A stretch of 64,000 nucleotides of DNA from Candidatus Moraniibacteriota bacterium (GTDB taxonomy: Bacteria > Patescibacteriota > Minisyncoccia > Moranbacterales > UBA1568): the NCBI GenBank assembly GCA_018499985.2, contig JAHBAT020000003.1, positions 5,622-69,621 on the forward strand. Direction: 5' to 3'. The notes beneath the pieces were generated by a model, which had not been told where the DNA came from, searched no databases, and worked only from the letters and a program-made list of their open reading frames with translations. Below are positions 15,502 to 42,266 of this stretch, one piece after another (the stretch's first letter is position 1; every line of letters starts with the position of its first letter). The position numbers were made by a program, and so were the translations under genes.

Positions 15502-16572
15502 TTAAGTTGGGGGAAGTGAATATTTATATGGAGGTGGTGAAGGCGTACCGCCTGTAGTCGTATTAACCTGGTTTAGTCTATCATTTACTATTCCTGCAGC
15601 TGGACCCACTACAGACTGCACCTTATTGATTTCACCGCTGATTTGACGATCAACATTGATAATCTCTCTTCGGATTTTATTTTGAATATCTCCTACACCC
15701 TTTTGTACCAAGTTTGATACCGTACGATTAACCACTGATACCACGACTCCGGAAAGGAACTCTCCTGGATTATCAGCGCCCACAATTATCTTATTACCCA
15801 AAGTAGTAACATCATTCACAAGACTCTCGATAGAGCCTGCTGGAGTAATGATATTACCATCCTTATCAGTGCCCGGTAAGAATCCAGAAGACTGTGCTTT
15901 AATCTCTTGTTCTCTGAGCGTCCTTTCGTATTCTGCATTATATGTACCCTCTGCAAGCAAAGCTATACCTATAGGATTATTGGCGCTGTTATTAAAAAGA
16001 CATCCGATTGCCTTTGTGCCAGCATTACCGGCTTGAATAGCTAGCCTTGGATCATTACCACCAGTACTACACTCTGCAAAATTATTTGCTTGAACATTTT
16101 TACGAGCAGCGACAGTATCTCGAACAATTTTCTCTAAGTAAGCATCATAACTCCCTCCTTTGTTTAGACCACTCACTTCACCATTGGCAACGTAGTTAGC
16201 ACTTGCCCCCTTTCCGCGGAGTGTTTGTGTCAAAAGATCCCCCACTACTGCCTGCTCTGCATTTTGCTCTGCTGTTTTAGTGAGGAGCTCACGAAAATCT
16301 GTAATAATTTTTGGCTGAGAACCATCCCCTCCTACAAATTGCATCACCTGAGTATTGAGAAGTTGCACAGCGGCTACTTTTAAAGTTCCAAGCAATGCAC
16401 CTTCAATGGTACGTGAGATATTTTCCATAGTCTGCTTCATAATAGAAGCAGCGATAGCTTCACCCCAAGCTCCAGCATGAACAGGTGTAGCCGGAAGAGC
16501 AAAGAGCCCTAAAGCTAAAACTAGTACTACCTGTGTTCGTAAAAATTTTTCTTTTACTTTTTTCAGTATCAT
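15502..16572 (-). CDS. Hypothetical secreted helical protein
   Basis: Signal peptide ending PVHA; 356 aa. Confidence 0.75.
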   Translation of the reverse strand: MILKKVKEKFLRTQVVLVLALGLFALPATPVHAGAWGEAIAASIMKQTMENISRTIEGALLGTLKVAAVQLLNTQVMQFVGGDGSQPKIITDFRELLTKTAEQNAEQAVVGDLLTQTLRGKGASANYVANGEVSGLNKGGSYDAYLEKIVRDTVAARKNVQANNFAECSTGGNDPRLAIQAGNAGTKAIGCLFNNSANNPIGIALLAEGTYNAEYERTLREQEIKAQSSGFLPGTDKDGNIITPAGSIESLVNDVTTLGNKIIVGADNPGEFLSGVVVSVVNRTVSNLVQKGVGDIQNKIRREIINVDRQISGEINKVQSVVGPAAGIVNDRLNQVNTTTGGTPSPPPYKYSLPPT

Positions 16573-16575
16573 AGA

Positions 16576-17553
16576 CTAAAGTTCAAGAGGAATAGTATCT
16601 ATTTCATATTTTTTGAGAGCGCCTTGTACATCATCCACAAACTGAGCCGTAACACCCAAAAGAGCCTGCATACGAGAAAGCGCCGCTATCTGCCCAATCG
16701 GATCATCTCCATCTGTTTTGATATCTTTCTTAAGCGAAGCTGCGTACAATCCCATCTTGAGTGCTTTTACATGAATATCAAGCATGGCCTCTGGCACTTC
16801 TACTTTTTTACTTTCATCCAGTATTTTTTGCCCTCTTTCTGCCAAAGCATTTGTAGCTTCCACATTACCATTTGCGAGTCCAAGGATCGCCTGACTTGAA
16901 AGACTATTCATTACTCCCCCAAACTGATCCTCTGTATTAAATTGTGAAGGAGAGTTATTAGCTACAATATATGACATCACTGTAAGGTACTCCAAAACAT
17001 CTTTTTTTTCTTGAGACTTTCTTTCTTTTTCTTTCAAGTTTTTTGAAGGTGCTTTTTTAATTTTAATCTCCTTCATATCAACCTCTGGAAGAATAACCTC
17101 TGTATTGTTACCACTCATAGCCTGTTCAACAGCACTATTGATTTGATCAAAAGTTACCTCTTTATTGTCATCTGTAACACCAGAAAGAACTCCTGCTATT
17201 TGAACAGAGACTTTGTTTGTAAGATTATCTTCCGGTGCACTTGATACACTCTCTTTCGCCTTATCTTCAATCTTTACTATTCTATCTCCAGGAGCCGGAA
17301 CCAAAGGATTGTAACCACTTTCGATTTCTACACCATCTGAATATCCGTCTCCATCTGTATCTGCCTTGTTGGCATCAGTACCGTAGAGCTTTTCTTCCTG
17401 AAGAGAAAGATTATCCTGATCAGCATCTACAAAAATATTTTTACCACTTGTTTGAGATTCTCCACGGACAGCATAAAAAGTACACCCGAAAAAGAGAACT
17501 AGAAACAAAAGAAAAGTTTTTCGCTCTTTAAATAAAGAAAATATAAATGACAT
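16576..17553 (-). CDS. Membrane-anchored protein with TSP3-like Ca-binding DxDxDG repeats
   Basis: DADQDNLS..EE..YGTD...ADTDGDGYSDGVEI..GYNP; start trimmed to ATG 17553. Confidence 0.75.
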   Translation of the reverse strand: MSFIFSLFKERKTFLLFLVLFFGCTFYAVRGESQTSGKNIFVDADQDNLSLQEEKLYGTDANKADTDGDGYSDGVEIESGYNPLVPAPGDRIVKIEDKAKESVSSAPEDNLTNKVSVQIAGVLSGVTDDNKEVTFDQINSAVEQAMSGNNTEVILPEVDMKEIKIKKAPSKNLKEKERKSQEKKDVLEYLTVMSYIVANNSPSQFNTEDQFGGVMNSLSSQAILGLANGNVEATNALAERGQKILDESKKVEVPEAMLDIHVKALKMGLYAASLKKDIKTDGDDPIGQIAALSRMQALLGVTAQFVDDVQGALKKYEIDTIPLEL

Positions 17554-17647
17554 ATTTTTTGTTTTTTCTATTATATCACTCGTAGCTACATCTTTCAAAA
17601 TATTTTCTCTACCCGCAATATTACCAATATTTATTATGCAATATAAA

Positions 17648-18997
17648 TTATTTATTGTCAAGTACTAATGTATTCACACTTCCCAAGGCTAAGAAGATCC
17701 AAAAAAGGAAAATTCCCTGCGGAAGAGTAAAGAAATAATGATCTCCTAAAGCCAGGATTAGGATAAATACTATCATCAACTGTGATCCACATCTCTGTTT
17801 CACGTGAAACATTTTTTTTGAAGAGGAGAAGAGTACACCTAAAAAAAGATACGTGTAGACAAGAAGCCCAAAAATACCCAACTCCCCCAAAACTATCAGA
17901 AGGCCGCTATGGACAGGTTGCATGACCCATGGATTCATTGAGGCTTTTAAAGATAGCTCTTGGTAGAAATAACTTGTTCCGATACCATTTCCAAAAAATG
18001 TCACTGCGTTTGTCTTGGCATATTCAATAAGGGAAAATTCTCTTTCATTAAAACTTTTTTGATTCAAAAAAATAATTATTCCAAAAATAACTATGGCCAG
18101 AATCAGATGTTTCACGTGAAACATATTTCTGTATTTCTCTTTTGTTTCACGTGAAACACTAAGTAAATAAAGGATTCCCCCTAAAATTAGGGCCACTTTT
18201 GAAAATGTTAGAAATAAAGCGATGCTTATGAAAAAGATTCCTAATTGTTTCACGTGAAACATACTAGTAAGTCTACTCCATTTTGTTTCACGTGAAACAA
18301 AAAAGTCTCTGAAAAGAAATGCCATTGTTAAAGTAAGCAATAGAAAAGCCGCCAAAACATTTGGATGAGGAAAAAGACCATAAGCTCGCAGTATTTTATC
18401 ACCAAAAAAGTTTATTGTAGCAATATTTTGAGATCCAATCTGCAAATGACTTTCACCCAAAAAATATAAATACACATCTCTCTGGGCAAAAAATTGCAAA
18501 ATCGCAATAAAAGCATTAAATAGGGCCGAAATATACAGACTCTCTAAAAATAACTGGAAATAATTAGTAAATTTCCATGTTTCACGTGAAACAATCTTAT
18601 TTTCTTGTTTCACGTGAAACAAGAAAAGAGTGATTATTCCATAATAAAGAATAATTGCTTCAAAATAAAAAAGAGTATGCCTAAGAGAAAGGGTTTTATC
18701 AGGAGAAAAAATAATTGAGAGTAGACTCAAAATCAAAACAGTTAGGGGAGCAAGTATCTGTATTCTGTTTTGTTTCACGTGAAACATTTCCCGTATACTT
18801 GACAATAGTATACTTTCATTGTATATTATTATGAAAAGTATGACGAGGAATGCTATATCGAATGCGTAGATCGATATATCTAAATATTCACTATAAAAAA
18901 GGCTTCCGAGAACATTCGGGATCAAAACATACTGCACATTCAAGAGAAAGCTTATCCCTAAGAAAATCAGGCTGATTTTTTTGAAAAAAATACTCAC
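17648..18997 (-). CDS. O-antigen ligase (Wzy_C)-family polytopic membrane protein containing eight parS sites
   Basis: LRAYGLFPHPNVLAAF, LFLTFSK, FFGNGIG, QPVHSGLLIVLGELGIFG, GDHYF; repeated MFHVKQ and VSRET peptides. Confidence 0.85.
   Translation of the reverse strand: MSIFFKKISLIFLGISFLLNVQYVLIPNVLGSLFYSEYLDISIYAFDIAFLVILFIIIYNESILLSSIREMFHVKQNRIQILAPLTVLILSLLSIIFSPDKTLSLRHTLFYFEAIILYYGIITLFLFHVKQENKIVSRETWKFTNYFQLFLESLYISALFNAFIAILQFFAQRDVYLYFLGESHLQIGSQNIATINFFGDKILRAYGLFPHPNVLAAFLLLTLTMAFLFRDFFVSRETKWSRLTSMFHVKQLGIFFISIALFLTFSKVALILGGILYLLSVSRETKEKYRNMFHVKHLILAIVIFGIIIFLNQKSFNEREFSLIEYAKTNAVTFFGNGIGTSYFYQELSLKASMNPWVMQPVHSGLLIVLGELGIFGLLVYTYLFLGVLFSSSKKMFHVKQRCGSQLMIVFILILALGDHYFFTLPQGIFLFWIFLALGSVNTLVLDNK
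17796..18786. promoter_or_regulatory. parS: parS cluster: 8 perfect TGTTTCACGTGAAACA palindromes
   Basis: Sites start at 17796, 18108, 18143, 18246, 18284, 18578, 18606 and 18771; exact match to the widely conserved ParB/Spo0J-binding consensus; ~21 kb from oriC. Confidence 0.93.
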
Positions 18998-21243: not shown

Positions 21244-21276
21244 CAAAACTCCCTCTTTATCTAGGGAGTTTCTTTG

Positions 21277-21357
21277 TACCGAGGGTGGGACTCGAACCCA
21301 CACGGCTTGCGCCTGGGGATTTTAAGTCCCCTATGTCTACCATTCCATCACCCCGGC
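21277..21357 (-). tRNA. tRNA-Leu(TAA)
   Basis: GGGGA-CTTAAAA-TCCCC anticodon arm with a long variable arm. Confidence 0.95.
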
Positions 21358-21382
21358 ATATTTCTATTATACATCTTTACTG

Positions 21383-21453
21383 AGGTCGCGTCCGGACTTG
21401 AACCGGAGTAAAGGGTTTTGCAGACCCGTGCCTAACCGCTCGGCCACGCGACC
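21383..21453 (-). tRNA. tRNA-Cys(GCA)
   Basis: GGTCGCG/CGCGACC acceptor, U73, GGGT-CTGCAAA-ACCC. Confidence 0.95.
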
Positions 21454-21466
21454 ATCTAACGCTGTT

Positions 21467-21543
21467 ATTTTGCAGATTTACCAGCCTCTGGCTGGCCTCT
21501 GCCACCGCCAGAGGCGGTCAAGTAACCACTCGGCCATCGGACC
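21467..21543 (-). pseudogene. Degenerate 5' part of a second tRNA-Cys interrupted by two short hairpins
   Basis: GGTCCGATGGCCGAGTGGTTA...[ACCGCCTCTGGCGGT][CCAGCCAGAGGCTGG]...ATCTGCAAAA; no T-arm. Confidence 0.6.
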
Positions 21544-21635
21544 AAACTTCACTATCACTTAAAAAGGGTACCAAATAGGGGGGTGCGAGTCAATAAACAA
21601 AACTCCACTCAAGATAGAGTGGAGTTCTTTTTTTA

Positions 21636-22184
21636 TTATTGTATTACCTTAGCACTCAGATTCTGACGTCCAAAAGCAAAGGCCTGACTTTTTGTTTTTA
21701 CATAAATATCAAAGTGATTACCCTTGATAGCTCCACCACGGTCCTCACAACGATACTCTCCCATTCCTTCGATACTAATCTTGGTACCAAAAGGAAATTC
21801 TCTCGGACAAGCAAGGGTACGCTTTTCGGTCACCATAAGACCTGAAGCGGTCATCCCATCGCTTTTACCACATTCATCAGCCGCTGCAGTATAAGCAGAA
21901 GCATTGATAGTAAAAGATTCGGTAGGAAGACTTGCCCAAAGGCTTGCCTGCTTAGTTTTCCATTTGAGAAGGATCTTATCTTCAATTGATAGCTCTTTTT
22001 GTTCAATCTGAGTATCAATTTGTTTATTCTTGAGGCTCCACTCGAGAAGATATGGGTCCTGAGAATAGTTATAACTCTGTATAAGTGGTAATTCTACGTT
22101 TTCAGCAGCCACTGTACCGATATTGGTAACAAATAGGCCGATTCCGAGTACTGCTACGAAAAGAAGCTCTTTTCGATAAGACAT
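21636..22184 (-). CDS. 3D-domain cell-wall protein (MltA/Sps-like) with a signal peptide
   Basis: NASAYT, TASG, LACP..FPFGTKI, EDRGGAIKGNHFDIY. Confidence 0.9.
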   Translation of the reverse strand: MSYRKELLFVAVLGIGLFVTNIGTVAAENVELPLIQSYNYSQDPYLLEWSLKNKQIDTQIEQKELSIEDKILLKWKTKQASLWASLPTESFTINASAYTAAADECGKSDGMTASGLMVTEKRTLACPREFPFGTKISIEGMGEYRCEDRGGAIKGNHFDIYVKTKSQAFAFGRQNLSAKVIQ

Positions 22185-22360
22185 AAATTGCTCTTACTGG
22201 TAATCCGCACATCCCTTGGGACTGACGGGCTGAGTAGGTCTGTACTTATCTCAACCCGGTATACTAGCATATTTCACAATTTTTGTCAATAGAAAATAGG
22301 GAATAATTAGCTTATATAAAGCAAAAAGTACCTTATAAAAAGGTACTTTTTAGTGCTTTT

Positions 22361-22580
22361 GAGCGGATAAGGGGACGAACTGCTCCCATTCGACAAGCTC
22401 ATGGTCCGCTCTATAGGGTTTCCACCCTCTAGCCCCTTTGGATTACCCCAATCTGGGAAACAAGTGTTTTTCCTGTCTCGCTCTGGCTTGCCAAGGCGGG
22501 CCGACCCTTTTCCCGTTCGATTCCCTCTACTTACCCAGAAAAAGCAAAAGACCCGGAGAATTCCGAGTCTTTTGGTTTAT
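22361..22580. repeat. tRNA-Gly-derived repeat region with a REP-like hairpin
   Basis: Direct copy of the tRNA 3' end at 22361-22380, CCAT-TCGACAAGCTC-ATGG hairpin, inverted anticodon and T-arm fragments, terminator hairpin near 22546-22572. Confidence 0.6.
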
Positions 22581-22583
22581 GTG

Positions 22584-22655
22584 AGCGGATAAGGGGAATC
22601 GAACCCCTATCTCATCCTTGGCAAGGACGTGTAATAACCATTATACGATATCCGC
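22584..22655 (-). tRNA. tRNA-Gly(GCC)
   Basis: GCGGATA/TATCCGC acceptor, U73, TCC-TTGCCAA-GGA. Confidence 0.95.
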
Positions 22656-22728
22656 TTATCTCTCTTTTCTAAATAACGACTTTCCTAGAATAAATATTTC
22701 TGTTTTACCTGTCAATCTAGCCTTATTG

Positions 22729-22802
22729 TGGGACTGGCTGGACTTGAACCAGCGACCAAGCGGTTATGAGCCGCCTGCTCTAACCAACTGAGCTACAGTC
22801 CC
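22729..22802 (-). tRNA. tRNA with CAT anticodon, probably tRNA-Ile2 (TilS substrate)
   Basis: GGGACTG/CAGTCCC acceptor, GGCGG-CTCATAA-CCGCT; no initiator C1 mismatch; Ile2 versus elongator Met is inference. Confidence 0.85.
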
Positions 22803-22872
22803 TAATTTTTGCTTATAAACAGTGTATAACTTTCTATAAGCACACTTATACAGCCTTTATCCACCTCTACTG

Positions 22873-22944
<72 letters not shown>

Positions 22945-22962
22945 TGAACTATCACACTTCTG

Positions 22963-23036
22963 TGCACGCTCAAGGACTCGAACCTTGGACCCCCTCGGTG
23001 TAAACGAGGTGCTCTAACCAACTGAGCTAAGCGTGC
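22963..23036 (-). tRNA. tRNA-Val(TAC)
   Basis: GCACGCT/AGCGTGC acceptor, CCTCG-TTTACAC-CGAGG. Confidence 0.95.
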
Positions 23037-23054
23037 TTATTGTATTCAATTGTG

Positions 23055-23138
23055 TGCCCAAGAGAGGACTTGAACCTCCACTCCCTTGCGAGAACATGCA
23101 CCTCAAGCATGCGCGTATACCAATTCCGCCACCTGGGC
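23055..23138 (-). tRNA. tRNA-Leu(GAG)
   Basis: GCCCAGG/CTTGGGC acceptor, CATGC-TTGAGGT-GCATG, long variable arm. Confidence 0.95.
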
Positions 23139-39332: not shown

Positions 39333-39401
39333 TTATCCACAGGTTGTGCACCAAACATTGCTTTAAAAAGGCTCGTATTTCAGTTATCCACATGCTATAA
39401 T
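39333..39401 (+). promoter_or_regulatory. DnaA boxes overlapping the dnaA promoter
   Basis: TTATCCACA at 39333 and 39384; TGCTATAAT at 39393-39401. Confidence 0.85.
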
Positions 39402-39428
39402 TTTAGTCACCTGATACGAAAATACCCT

Positions 39429-40871
39429 ATGACTCACGATGACCTCTGGAAGGCTGTCCTTGGCCAAATTGAACTTTCCCTTTCGAAAGCCAACTTTATT
39501 ACCTGGTTTAAAAACACCAACCTTTTAGAGGTCAGTGATGGCAAGGCCCTTATTGGTGTGCCGAATGGTTTTGCTAAAGAATGGCTAGAAAACAAGTATA
39601 ATACCCATATTTTAAAAGCCCTTCGGACCCTTGATCCTTCAATTCAAAGCATCCGTTGCACTATTTCTCTCTCTGATCCACACACAAACCAGCAGCCCAA
39701 ACCTATTAGCCGTTCTATTGACGCTGCCATTCCTCGGAACGAAAACACTGAGACGGCCAATAGTTTTGTACGAAAAAAGCTCATAGAAAAACCTTCATTT
39801 TCATCTGAAGGTACTTCTGTCTCTCTTCAAAAAGAGGTTTTTCATGAGAGCAGCCTTAATTCTCGCTATACTTTTGAAAATTACATTGTTGCGGAGAACA
39901 ATGAACTTGCTCACGCCGCCTGCCACGCCGTCTCTCAAAACCTTGGTATGCTTTACAACCCTCTCTTTATTTATGGTGGCGTAGGCTTAGGAAAAACCCA
40001 TCTTTTACAGTCTATTGGCAATGAAGTAATGCGCAATCATCCCGAAAAACGCATTAAATACATTACCTCTGAGCGTTTTACCACAGAACTTGTTGATTCT
40101 ATTAAAAATCAAAAAATTGACATCTTTAAAGAATATTATCAGCAAATGGACCTCCTTATTATAGATGATGTTCAATTTCTTTCTGGGAGAGAAAAAACTC
40201 AAAATGAGTTTTTTCATATTTTTAACGCTCTCTACCAAATAAACAAGCAGATTGTTATCTCTAGCGATCGTCCACCTAAAGCTATTGGTACTCTTGAAGA
40301 ACGTCTCCGTTCTCGCTTTGAGGGTGGAATGATTACAGATATCAGTCAACCAAGCCTTGAAACTCGTATTGCTATTCTTAGTTCAAAAGTTCAAGAAAAA
40401 GGTCTTTCTATCGATGAGGACGCCCTTCGTTTTATAGCTCAAAATATCAACCAAAATGTTCGCGAACTTGAAGGTGCTCTCAATCGCGTAATTGCTTATT
40501 GTGATTTTCGTAAAATACCTGCCAACTTAGCTAATACAGAAAAAATTCTTGTTGAACTCCTTGAAAAAAACCGTAAAAATATCAGTACTGAGAGTGTTTT
40601 TAGCACTATTTGTGAGTATTACTCTGTAGAACATGAAGATTTAATTAAAAAAGGGCGTAAAAAGGAAATTTCTCATCCTCGTCAGGTTCTTATGTACATC
40701 TTAAGACAAGAACTCTCTACCCCATTTTCTACTATTGGCGACATGCTTGGAGGAAGAGATCATACCACTGTACTTCATGCTTTTGAAAAAATAAACAAAG
40801 AAAAAGAAACTTCTCCTAAGATAAAAGAGGAATTAAACCAAATCAAAGAGCGCCTTTATTATATTTCTTAG
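39429..40871 (+). CDS. dnaA: Chromosomal replication initiator DnaA
   Basis: YNPLFIYGGVGLGKTHL, LIIDDVQF, RL.SRF, RELEGAL, GGRDHTTV. Confidence 0.99.
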   Translation: MTHDDLWKAVLGQIELSLSKANFITWFKNTNLLEVSDGKALIGVPNGFAKEWLENKYNTHILKALRTLDPSIQSIRCTISLSDPHTNQQPKPISRSIDAAIPRNENTETANSFVRKKLIEKPSFSSEGTSVSLQKEVFHESSLNSRYTFENYIVAENNELAHAACHAVSQNLGMLYNPLFIYGGVGLGKTHLLQSIGNEVMRNHPEKRIKYITSERFTTELVDSIKNQKIDIFKEYYQQMDLLIIDDVQFLSGREKTQNEFFHIFNALYQINKQIVISSDRPPKAIGTLEERLRSRFEGGMITDISQPSLETRIAILSSKVQEKGLSIDEDALRFIAQNINQNVRELEGALNRVIAYCDFRKIPANLANTEKILVELLEKNRKNISTESVFSTICEYYSVEHEDLIKKGRKKEISHPRQVLMYILRQELSTPFSTIGDMLGGRDHTTVLHAFEKINKEKETSPKIKEELNQIKERLYYIS

Positions 40872-41111
40872 TGTATAAGTCTGTATAAAGTTCAAAATAG
40901 AGAGGATAACCTCTGGAAAAGATGCGGATAAAAATAAACACAAACAAACCTTCTCATTGTCTAATATATTTTTAATCCTTTATCCGTATATTAGCCACCC
41001 TATAAAAAGAGTTCTTGCTTCACTTTAAATCCTTTTATTAAGCTATAAAATTGACTTATCCAGTTATCCACAGCCCTAATATATAATAACTATTCTTTTT
41101 AAAAAATATAT
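40872..41111. other. oriC: Replication origin oriC (dnaA-dnaN intergenic)
   Basis: Multiple DnaA-box-like 9-mers; perfect TTATCCACA at 41064 followed by GCCC and TAA/TAT-rich DnaA-trio-like sequence; the + strand appears to shift from C-rich to G-rich across this region (by eye). Confidence 0.85.
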
Positions 41112-42266
41112 ATGAAACTCATTTGCACACAAGAAAATCTCACCCAAGCCCTCAATGCTCTTGATCGAGTAGTGGGAAAACAAAGCTCTTTGCCAATACT
41201 CAGTAACTTTCTTTTTGAGTCAGAAAATGGAAGGTTAAAAATATCTGCTACAAATCTAGAGATAGGTATTATAGTTTTTGTAGGAGCAAAAATTGAAAAA
41301 GAAGGTAAGTTTGCCGTGCCAGCACGTATACTCTCTCAGTTTGTACAGAATTTACCCCAAGGAGAGGTTTTGGAGCTTGAACTAAAGGATGGGCAGCTTT
41401 TACTAAAGAGTGGTAGTTCAGATATGAAAATAAAGGTTTTGGATGGTAAGGATTTTCCTATTATCCCTACATTTAAAAAAGAATACCCAGTTATTTTATT
41501 AGCTCAACCAATTAAACAGGCGCTTTCGAGACTTCTTTTTTGTGCAAGTAATAATGAATCCCGTATAGAGCTAACAGGCGCTCAGTTCCTTTTTGAAGAA
41601 AAGCAGCTTTCTATCGCAGCAACAGATAGTTTTCGTCTTGCTGAAGAGGTTTTGAAATACAATCAAGCTAAAGAGAGTATTTTAAATGGAGAAGAAAGTA
41701 AGAGTCTTATTATTCCAATTAACACACTACAAGAAATATCAAGATCCATAACACCTGAAGTAGAAGAGCTGAAAGTAGCAATTGAAGAACATCAGCTTTT
41801 TTTTGAAATTGATAATGTGCAAATTGTTTCACGTATTATTAACGGGCGTTTCCCTGATTATAAACAAATTATCCCAAAAGAGTTTCTTTTAAGGGTAGCT
41901 TTAGAGAAAGAGGCTCTTATTCGCTCACTAAAGATAGCAAGTACTCTTTCAGCTTATAATACTGGTGAAATTGCTCTTATCTTCAATCCAGAAGAAGAAA
42001 ACTGTACAGTAATCTCTAAATCACAAGAAATTGGAGAAAATAGCAGTGTCTTAATGGGAGATTTTTTGAAAGGAGCAGGCCCACTGACACTTATTTTTAA
42101 TCCGCGGTATCTTTTAGAGGGATTGAGCGCCTTTTCTTCAAAGAAGATAGTTTTTTCTGCTAATACCTCATCAAGCCCAGCTACTTTTGAGGCGTTAGAG
42201 GAAAATGAAGAAAACAAAGCGGAATACGTCTATGTGATGATGCCTATTCGTAAGGAGTATGCGTAA
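41112..42266 (+). CDS. dnaN: DNA polymerase III beta clamp
   Basis: LPILSN, ATNLEI, ATDSFRLA, GRFPDY, FNPRYL, YVMMPIR. Confidence 0.97.
   Translation: MKLICTQENLTQALNALDRVVGKQSSLPILSNFLFESENGRLKISATNLEIGIIVFVGAKIEKEGKFAVPARILSQFVQNLPQGEVLELELKDGQLLLKSGSSDMKIKVLDGKDFPIIPTFKKEYPVILLAQPIKQALSRLLFCASNNESRIELTGAQFLFEEKQLSIAATDSFRLAEEVLKYNQAKESILNGEESKSLIIPINTLQEISRSITPEVEELKVAIEEHQLFFEIDNVQIVSRIINGRFPDYKQIIPKEFLLRVALEKEALIRSLKIASTLSAYNTGEIALIFNPEEENCTVISKSQEIGENSSVLMGDFLKGAGPLTLIFNPRYLLEGLSAFSSKKIVFSANTSSSPATFEALEENEENKAEYVYVMMPIRKEYA

Follow-up and report, generated by a model that had tools for sequence, protein, structure and literature searches.

The whole stretch of DNA analysed here (the window, 64,000 nucleotides) corresponds to C16:5622-69621 of a Candidatus Moraniibacteriota genome assembly, G000 (891,858 bases in 24 contigs, 98.6% complete by marker genes); the other G numbers used below denote genomes of its relatives. 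Within this window, a single gene for a predicted O-antigen-ligase-like (WaaL/Wzy_C) membrane protein contains eight perfect copies of the 16-bp palindrome TGTTTCACGTGAAACA, and we consider it highly probable that these palindromes are the chromosomal ParB centromere of this bacterium, overprinted on a gene that tolerates them. The gene and its sites are listed below, with loop assignments from the predicted topology.

17648..18997, minus strand: host gene, predicted WaaL/Wzy_C (O-antigen-ligase-like) polytopic membrane protein, 449 amino acids (aa), GTG start (from the open reading frame (ORF), the fold match and the Pfam matches of orthologs)
17796..17811: parS site 1, perfect TGTTTCACGTGAAACA, read as MFHVKQ, residues 396-401, predicted cytoplasmic loop L10
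18108..18123: parS site 2, MFHVKH, residues 292-297, edge of predicted cytoplasmic loop L8
18143..18158: parS site 3, SVSRET, residues 280-285, predicted loop L8
18246..18261: parS site 4, MFHVKQ, residues 246-251, predicted loop L6
18284..18299: parS site 5, FVSRET, residues 233-238, predicted loop L6
18578..18593: parS site 6, IVSRET, residues 135-140, predicted loop L4
18606..18621: parS site 7, LFHVKQ, residues 126-131, predicted loop L4
18771..18786: parS site 8, MFHVKQ, residues 71-76, predicted loop L2

The eight sites are packed into 991 bp, with close pairs whose starts lie 35, 38 and 28 bp apart, compared with 0.02 copies expected by chance in the window and none of 100 shuffles reaching eight. 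Allowing up to two mismatches, no further match to TGTTTCACGTGAAACA was found in the rest of the window, nor any outside the host gene in the whole assembly. All eight sites are also covered, with no differences, by contig pieces from another study's sequencing run (X3), and the array is thus not an artefact of a single assembly. The reading (M/L)FHVK(Q/H) applies to five of the sites and xVSRET to the other three; none is in the frame that would give a TGA stop codon, and all eight are perfect matches to the parS consensus TGTTNCACGTGNAACA.

The array lies 20.6 kb from the origin region, as judged by dnaA, DnaA boxes and the GC-skew minimum, with the turning point of the cumulative GC skew at approximately 40-42 kb in the window:

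39333..42266, plus strand: origin region (DnaA boxes, dnaA, a dnaN-sized ORF and the GC-skew minimum)
39333, 39384 and 41064: perfect DnaA boxes, from a motif search
39429..40871, plus strand: dnaA
41112..42266, plus strand: 384-aa ORF of dnaN size, putative dnaN

In relatives with the array and dnaA on one contig, this distance is 11 kb (G024), 29 kb (G011) and 37 kb (G054), such that the array is origin-proximal in all four genomes where the distance can be measured, G000 included. We also note a one-mismatch DnaA box, TGATCCACA, at 17783-17791, 5 bp before parS site 1, which is the sole box-like match near the array and is, taken alone, not above chance. An initial annotation of this DNA, made from the sequence, had described eight perfect canonical parS sites with these pair spacings and none elsewhere in the window, a 5 to 3 split between the FHVK and VSRET frames that spares the stop frame, and a position approximately 21 kb from oriC; pattern search, translation, comparison with the consensus and the origin markers bear out each of these statements, and the whole-genome scan that it called for returned no equally dense sites elsewhere, the same eight being the only copies.

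Comparison with the closest relative, G056, points to selection on the sites at the level of DNA. All eight site positions are kept one for one between the two genomes, with 125 of 128 site bases identical vs 772 of 1219 in the rest of the gene. The synonymous constraint that had been suggested as a check is likewise apparent, as third codon positions are identical at 42 of 43 positions within the sites vs 182 of 406 outside them (at identical amino acids, 35 of 36 vs 120 of 230). Furthermore, the same 16-mer is read in two frames in G000 and in three frames in relatives, which means that the conserved unit is DNA and not a peptide. For this same reason, a repeat at the protein level was considered and rejected. 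Judged from the site versus non-site identity, the variety of frames, and the arrays that are free of ORFs (described below), the sites are conserved as DNA beyond coding needs.

The same arrangement recurs among the relatives. Sites of the type TGTTYCACGTGRAACA are found in 42 of 50 genomes of the genus, at 1-18 copies each, the majority type being the C/G form TGTTCCACGTGGAACA, which is open in all three frames; the T/A form is used by G000, G056 and G044. Of 35 genus loci examined, 30 carry arrays (6-18 sites over 0.8-1.6 kb, with up to 18 sites in approximately 1.5 kb) and five are site-free paralog loci. Among the 30 array loci, 25 have the entire array enclosed by a single open frame, 402-729 aa long. 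Of the remaining five, the array frame contains one TGA in G021 and is split in G059. In the other three (G006, G024 and G002), frames across the 9-16 sites extend to 87 aa at most, and each frame of the slot, which is the same as in the other genomes, is interrupted by 22-72 stops.

Frame use follows the site variant: T/A arrays use the two stop-free frames only (5/3 in G000, 4/3 in G056 and 8/6 in G044), and C/G arrays use all three, often as the repeated triplets MFHVEH / NVPRGT / CSTWNI. In a number of C/G arrays (L040, L041, L050, L052, L054, L057 and others), these triplets are ordered in frames 1, 2, 0, with spacings of 34-58 bp that in nearly all cases are one more than a multiple of 3. 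Nearly all sites belong to one variant per genome, with the exception of G056 (L031/L034) and G052 (L032), where the variants are mixed; these mixed arrays suggest a gradual conversion of half-sites from C to T and from G to A, which would be allowed only where the frame tolerates it.

The surrounding gene order (ftsH, two genes, the array, tRNAs or rbfA, and a DHH protein) is preserved in seven of seven relatives checked, including the three non-coding cases, with the rbfA side cut by a contig end in G056. On a midpoint-rooted tree of four concatenated neighbour proteins from seven genomes (G056, whose contig starts at the array, was left out), the non-coding G006 is sister to the coding G054 (support 100/99), and the non-coding G024 and G002 are together sister to the coding G044 (91/93), requiring at least two changes between coding and non-coding states. 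In our reading, the gene was probably lost on two or more occasions, with the array staying in place. A tblastn search for gene relics in the three non-coding arrays, using 21 ortholog proteins with the parS residues masked, gave just short matches outside the arrays, which probably stem from the tRNA-flank part of the stop-to-stop frames.

Outside the genus, TGTTNCACGTGNAACA is found in 104 of 121 genomes sampled from the order, at up to 17 copies each. A sister family with equally small genomes has arrays of 5-17 sites in non-coding DNA of 0.6-4 kb. In eight of its loci (L068-L075), 5-17 perfect T/A copies span 0.6-2 kb; none of these eight arrays lies within an ORF of at least 100 aa, although at one locus a 542-aa ORF takes in 2 of the 7 sites, and none of the eight loci shares neighbours with the window. 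In the two sister-family loci checked against Pfam, the array sits in a large non-coding stretch directly beside dnaA (followed by dnaN in the case of L068:3327-7388) and hence probably inside oriC or adjacent to it; for the other six, the same position is suggested by ORF sizes. When public genomes were searched with the protein alignment, 80 loci were returned, 38 of them with at least one strict site and 30 with at least four, all sites being inside an ORF in 28 of these 30; we note that this set was found through the protein and is thus biased towards coding arrays. In these 30 public loci, 29 of 29 sites capable of giving TGA avoid the stop frame, a count that is conditional on the ORF being open. 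The public loci have titles such as Candidatus Moraniibacteriota, Moranbacteria and Parcubacteria group, and many carry the title "uncultured Bdellovibrionales" (e.g., L076-L078 and L080-L082), a label that is probably wrong, the closest named relatives of these assemblies being Moraniibacteriota/Moranbacteria.

By sequence comparison, the arrangement is therefore conserved across the genus and beyond. As the array is kept without the gene in three genomes and is non-coding in the sister family, the centromere appears to be the primary selected feature and the gene its tolerant host. We note, however, that the compactness of the genome, which had been offered as the cause of the overprint, is insufficient to explain the overlap by itself, since both the equally small sister-family genomes and three genomes of the genus keep non-coding arrays.

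The host ORF is, on sequence grounds, a real gene under purifying selection. Its 449-aa frame stays open in DNA of approximately 37% G+C, and relative to G056 the protein is 59% identical, with a ratio of nonsynonymous to synonymous substitution (dN/dS) of 0.19 and a proportion of synonymous differences (pS) of 0.65, meaning that synonymous sites are saturated. The corresponding dN/dS values for neighbouring genes, with a 362-aa neighbour excluded, are 0.015-0.14, with protein identities of 88-97% for three of four neighbours and 71% for a 355-aa neighbour, and the host gene is thus selected, yet more weakly than its neighbours. The AlphaFold2 model of the protein (alignment of 23 relatives) has a predicted template-modeling (TM) score of 0.80 and a mean predicted local distance difference test (pLDDT) score of 71.6, and its top fold match in the PDB is the WaaL O-antigen ligase 7tpg_B (expectation value (E) 1.7e-4, probability 1.00, TM scores 0.50/0.55, 12% identity over the structural alignment), followed by the SEDS proteins FtsW and RodA. 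The Pfam Wzy_C family (PF04932) matches the orthologs in G044 and G012 with 37.6 and 41.6 bits, respectively, above the 31.7-bit cut-off, orthology being based on synteny for G044 and on protein matches for both. We thus predict a WaaL/Wzy_C-like membrane enzyme.

The family motifs RAYGLFPHPN and QPVH are present in the G000 protein, and the site-free paralogs of relatives (G006p and G020p) share the motifs of the host protein. Among 23 sequences there are 21 invariant columns (including R204, Y206, H211, P212, N213, E318, R319, W357, Q360, P361 and H363), none of which falls within parS-coded residues. The parS-coded inner-loop peptides are absent from the site-free paralogs, and window-averaged hydropathy is -0.16 at parS-coded residues vs 0.91 elsewhere in the protein. 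The model has six stretches of low confidence, five of which overlap or adjoin parS peptides. These data agree with the initial annotation in its placement of the sites in hydrophilic loops, in its observation that the family motifs are intact, and in its assignment of the host to the O-antigen-ligase family, the latter now as a WaaL/Wzy_C-like gene under selection.

In WaaL, both termini lie inside the cell. If the model's twelve long helices are taken to cross the membrane and the N-terminus to be inside, each of the eight parS peptides falls within, or at the margin of, one of five predicted inner (cytoplasmic) loops, with 35 of the 48 parS-coded residues in predicted inner loops and none of the 48 in outer loops. 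The sidedness is assigned by helix counting, the WaaL topology and the positive-inside rule, as lysine and arginine account for 17 of 86 residues in predicted inner loops and for 7 of 128 in outer loops. With these assignments, the invariant motif columns are all found in predicted outer loops (among them R204, H211, R319 and H363) or in the first residues of adjoining helices, except for E372 in the tenth helix.

The host gene contains all eight sites, and the last 14 bases of its 3' end overlap the start of the next gene. The neighbouring features are as follows.

15502..17661, minus strand: two downstream genes on the same strand as the host gene, encoding 361 aa with a TSP3 repeat and then 356 aa
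19103..19305, plus strand: tRNA-Ala(GGC) and tRNA-Arg(CCT), the other boundary of the array slot, followed by rbfA

The two downstream genes are syntenic neighbours in all relatives checked and probably form one operon with the host gene, which, from its coordinates, is directed away from the origin and would hence be co-oriented with replication. A scan for promoters and terminators around the host gene gave 12 promoter-like sites vs 11.6 expected, and no terminators. The tRNA-Ala and tRNA-Arg genes lie immediately upstream of the host gene, and on the same side, at 21276-23138 of the window, seven further tRNA genes are clustered on the minus strand (Leu, Cys, Gly, Met, Phe, Val and Leu).

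Based on sequence, we infer that ParB binds at the array, which would then act as a single dense ParB loading platform approximately 20 kb from oriC. At each 16-bp site, ParB dimers would bind, turn into closed clamps with cytidine triphosphate (CTP) and spread, the resulting partition complex would be moved by ParA, and SMC would be loaded there, in line with the ParABS mechanism (ParB-CTP clamps, ParA, SMC) as outlined in PMC7333895. This platform would be overprinted on segments of a selected WaaL-like gene that encode predicted cytoplasmic loops, such that the same DNA would serve both as centromere and as protein code. The overprint is limited by the genetic code: the T/A variant is barred from the frame that reads TGA, and the spacing classes are kept by in-frame insertions and deletions. 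Close spacings with remainders of 1, 2 and 0 modulo 3 number 122, 14 and 3 in coding arrays (136 of 139 not being multiples of 3) and 11, 5 and 9 in non-coding arrays, counts that are not independent, the genomes being related.

The partners that this mechanism calls for are found in the clade. G056 and G044, both of which carry T/A arrays, encode a ParB with the domains ParB_N, HTH_ParB and ParB_C; ParA is identified in G056, and in G044 a 276-aa ORF, a candidate ParA by position, occupies the corresponding place beside parB. Of 24 genus relatives, 19 have a ParB_N match; over all 41 genomes, G000 included, the figure is 34. The parB gene is not adjacent to the array, the two being 132 kb apart on one contig in G022. 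In G000 itself, the only clear SMC-like protein is a 770-aa protein at C11:32658-34970 (L160:659-2971), in which the SMC_N match spans the whole protein; no SMC hinge family was matched in it at E 0.001 or better. In G056 (L028, C6:1-14000), the block order is HAD hydrolase, glmS, uppP, folD, one ORF, parA and parB. We note in passing an 874-aa protein of G056 (L028:9405-12026) in which GlmS domains (GATase and two SIS) are joined to a C-terminal RNase_T exonuclease domain, an unusual-looking fusion.

A number of observations weigh against our interpretation. A profile search of the G000 assembly with ParB_N, HTH_ParB, TIGR00180 and the ParA-type AAA_31 gave no match, nor did ParB_N at E 10 or a relative's full-length ParB at E 1, yet the assembly is 98.6% complete by markers. 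Of the parAB and smc genes that the initial annotation had proposed to locate, the SMC-like protein was thus found, and parB, the absence of which from the genome it had considered damaging to the idea of a centromere, is formally absent from the assembly. On the side of the host protein, the Wzy_C match of the G000 sequence itself is sub-threshold (E 7.7e-4, 19.7 bits vs the cut-off), the mean pLDDT of the model is just 71.6, and the sidedness of the loops depends on helix counting, the positive-inside rule and the WaaL topology.

The missing parB is most likely explained by an assembly gap that would contain the G000 parAB genes. Contig C6 of G000 ends within the ortholog of the HAD hydrolase (L161:4467-4790), 90% identical to that of G056 and with the frame open at the contig end, and none of glmS, uppP, folD, parA and parB gave a tblastn match in G000. 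The block is also broken in relatives, both ParB and FolD being missing in G003 and G006, parB being split across two contig ends in G013, and folD lying at a contig end in G018. With the contig breaking at the parAB block, the whole block missing, and the block broken in relatives, parAB probably falls in the gap, and marker-based completeness hides a recurrent hole at glmS-uppP-folD-parA-parB.

The centromere could, in addition, draw some benefit from the overlap itself, as a membrane tether or a frame lock, a proposal that we regard as unlikely. In the former case, co-translational insertion of the 12-helix protein may hold the ParB-parS complex, and with it the origin region, at the membrane, which, if true, would be relevant to ultra-small cells, which lack known polar anchors. 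The initial annotation had likewise raised a tether by transertion, together with a possible coupling of ParB loading to surface-glycan expression. In the latter, the selected reading frame may protect the dense repeat array, as the spacings are mostly not multiples of 3 and a deletion between neighbouring sites would thus frameshift the selected gene. Both forms are difficult to reconcile with the 9-16 ORF-free sites in three genomes of the genus and the 5-17 in the sister family, and the spacing classes are inherited among kin and hence represent few independent events.

A role of the sites mainly as an operator, with ParB or a ParB-like CTP switch silencing or timing the glycan enzyme and its operon, and with segregation secondary or absent, appears quite unlikely to us. 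The sites do lie inside a transcription unit, in which the stop of the host gene overlaps the beginning of the gene that follows; neither parA nor parB turned up in the G000 assembly, and transcription switches of the ParB family, such as VirB, are known. However, arrays persist in the same slot without an ORF in G006, G024 and G002, where there is no glycan gene to regulate, nor is there one at the sister-family arrays, which are non-coding and lie beside dnaA in the two loci checked. Moreover, 8-18 sites far exceed the needs of an operator, and the near-origin position is kept in every genome where it can be measured.

Still more doubtful is the idea that the ORF is a dead or dying relic, and the locus a non-coding centromere that has yet to gather stops. 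The frame is gone in three relatives and has a stop or a split in two more, the host protein is less conserved (59% identity) than any of the four neighbours compared (88-97% in three cases and 71% for the 355-aa neighbour), and the G000 Pfam score is below the cut-off. Against this stand the dN/dS of 0.19 with saturated synonymous sites, the 449-aa frame that is open at approximately 37% G+C, the 25 of 30 arrays that lie in open frames of 402-729 aa, the 21 invariant columns clustered in predicted outer loops, and the avoidance of the stop frame by all 29 TGA-capable sites in public loci (again conditional on an open ORF). Finally, we find it scarcely credible that the palindromes are a selfish or structural repeat (similar to miniature inverted-repeat transposable elements or repetitive extragenic palindromes, or a restriction-related motif) that merely resembles parS, since, although the copies are perfect and homogeneous per genome (T/A or C/G type), as if one element had spread, the G000 genome has no copy elsewhere, the bases flanking the 16-mer show no apparent conservation, the syntenic position does not vary, the copy positions of G000 and G056 match one for one, and both variants are published parS sequences.

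If the eight palindromes are indeed a centromere, this lineage would provide an extreme natural data set on parS number and clustering, with a single array of 5-18 identical sites per approximately 1-Mb genome, seen both as non-coding DNA (beside dnaA in the two loci checked) and overprinted on a conserved gene. A 2020 review (PMC7333895) counts among the open questions the causes of the variation in parS number and of the clustering of the sites. Site-by-site shifts between the two parS variants are here under a visible constraint from the genetic code, as the TGA-reading frame is closed to the T/A variant, and the locus is a clean example of two kinds of selection acting simultaneously on the same DNA. 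In practical terms, the sites would mark the origin region in Moranbacteria-like genomes from metagenomes, and, for annotation, the FHVK, VSRET, VPRGT and CSTWN repeats in these proteins should not be taken as protein motifs. A literature search (supplementary files excluded) found no published account of parS in Patescibacteria, the candidate phyla radiation or Moranbacteria; the ParB papers among those listed deal with model bacteria and plasmids.

Among known systems, WaaL (PF04932; 7tpg) is the best fold match of the host protein, the orthologs of which match the family profile; the model has twelve predicted helices, and its conserved Arg and His residues in predicted outer loops may correspond to the catalytic ones of WaaL. 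The host protein differs in the low sequence identity (12%), in the sub-threshold Pfam score of the G000 sequence, and in the parS-coded peptides of its inner loops. In the plasmid centromeres F sopC and R1 parC, binding sites are arranged as close repeats, many of them packed into approximately 1 kb as one loading platform, much as in the array described here; these are, however, non-coding tandem repeats with their own ParB/ParR types, whereas the present array consists of canonical chromosomal parS sites, irregularly spaced in coding sequence. In model bacteria, single parS sites can also lie within genes.

The closest likeness is to the origin-proximal parS clusters of chromosomal ParABS systems, with which the G000 array shares the 16-bp palindrome, the near-origin position and the presence of multiple sites, and the ParA, ParB and SMC partners of which are likewise found in this clade. 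In published work, genomes carry from 1 up to 20-23 parS copies in the vicinity of the origin (PMC7333895), with 22 sites in M. xanthus (PMC3899335) and 10 in P. aeruginosa, four of them close to oriC (PMC4368675). Unlike these usual clusters, the array described here is far denser (8 sites within 991 bp, and as many as 18 within approximately 1.5 kb in relatives), has no other site beside it in the G000 genome, lies far from parAB (132 kb in G022), and is contained as a whole in the loop-coding segments of one conserved gene, read in two to three frames. The site, its near-origin position and its partners are thus those of an ordinary chromosomal ParABS system, and what is different is the density of the array, its uniqueness in the genome, its distance from parAB, and its systematic embedding, in multiple frames, in a gene.

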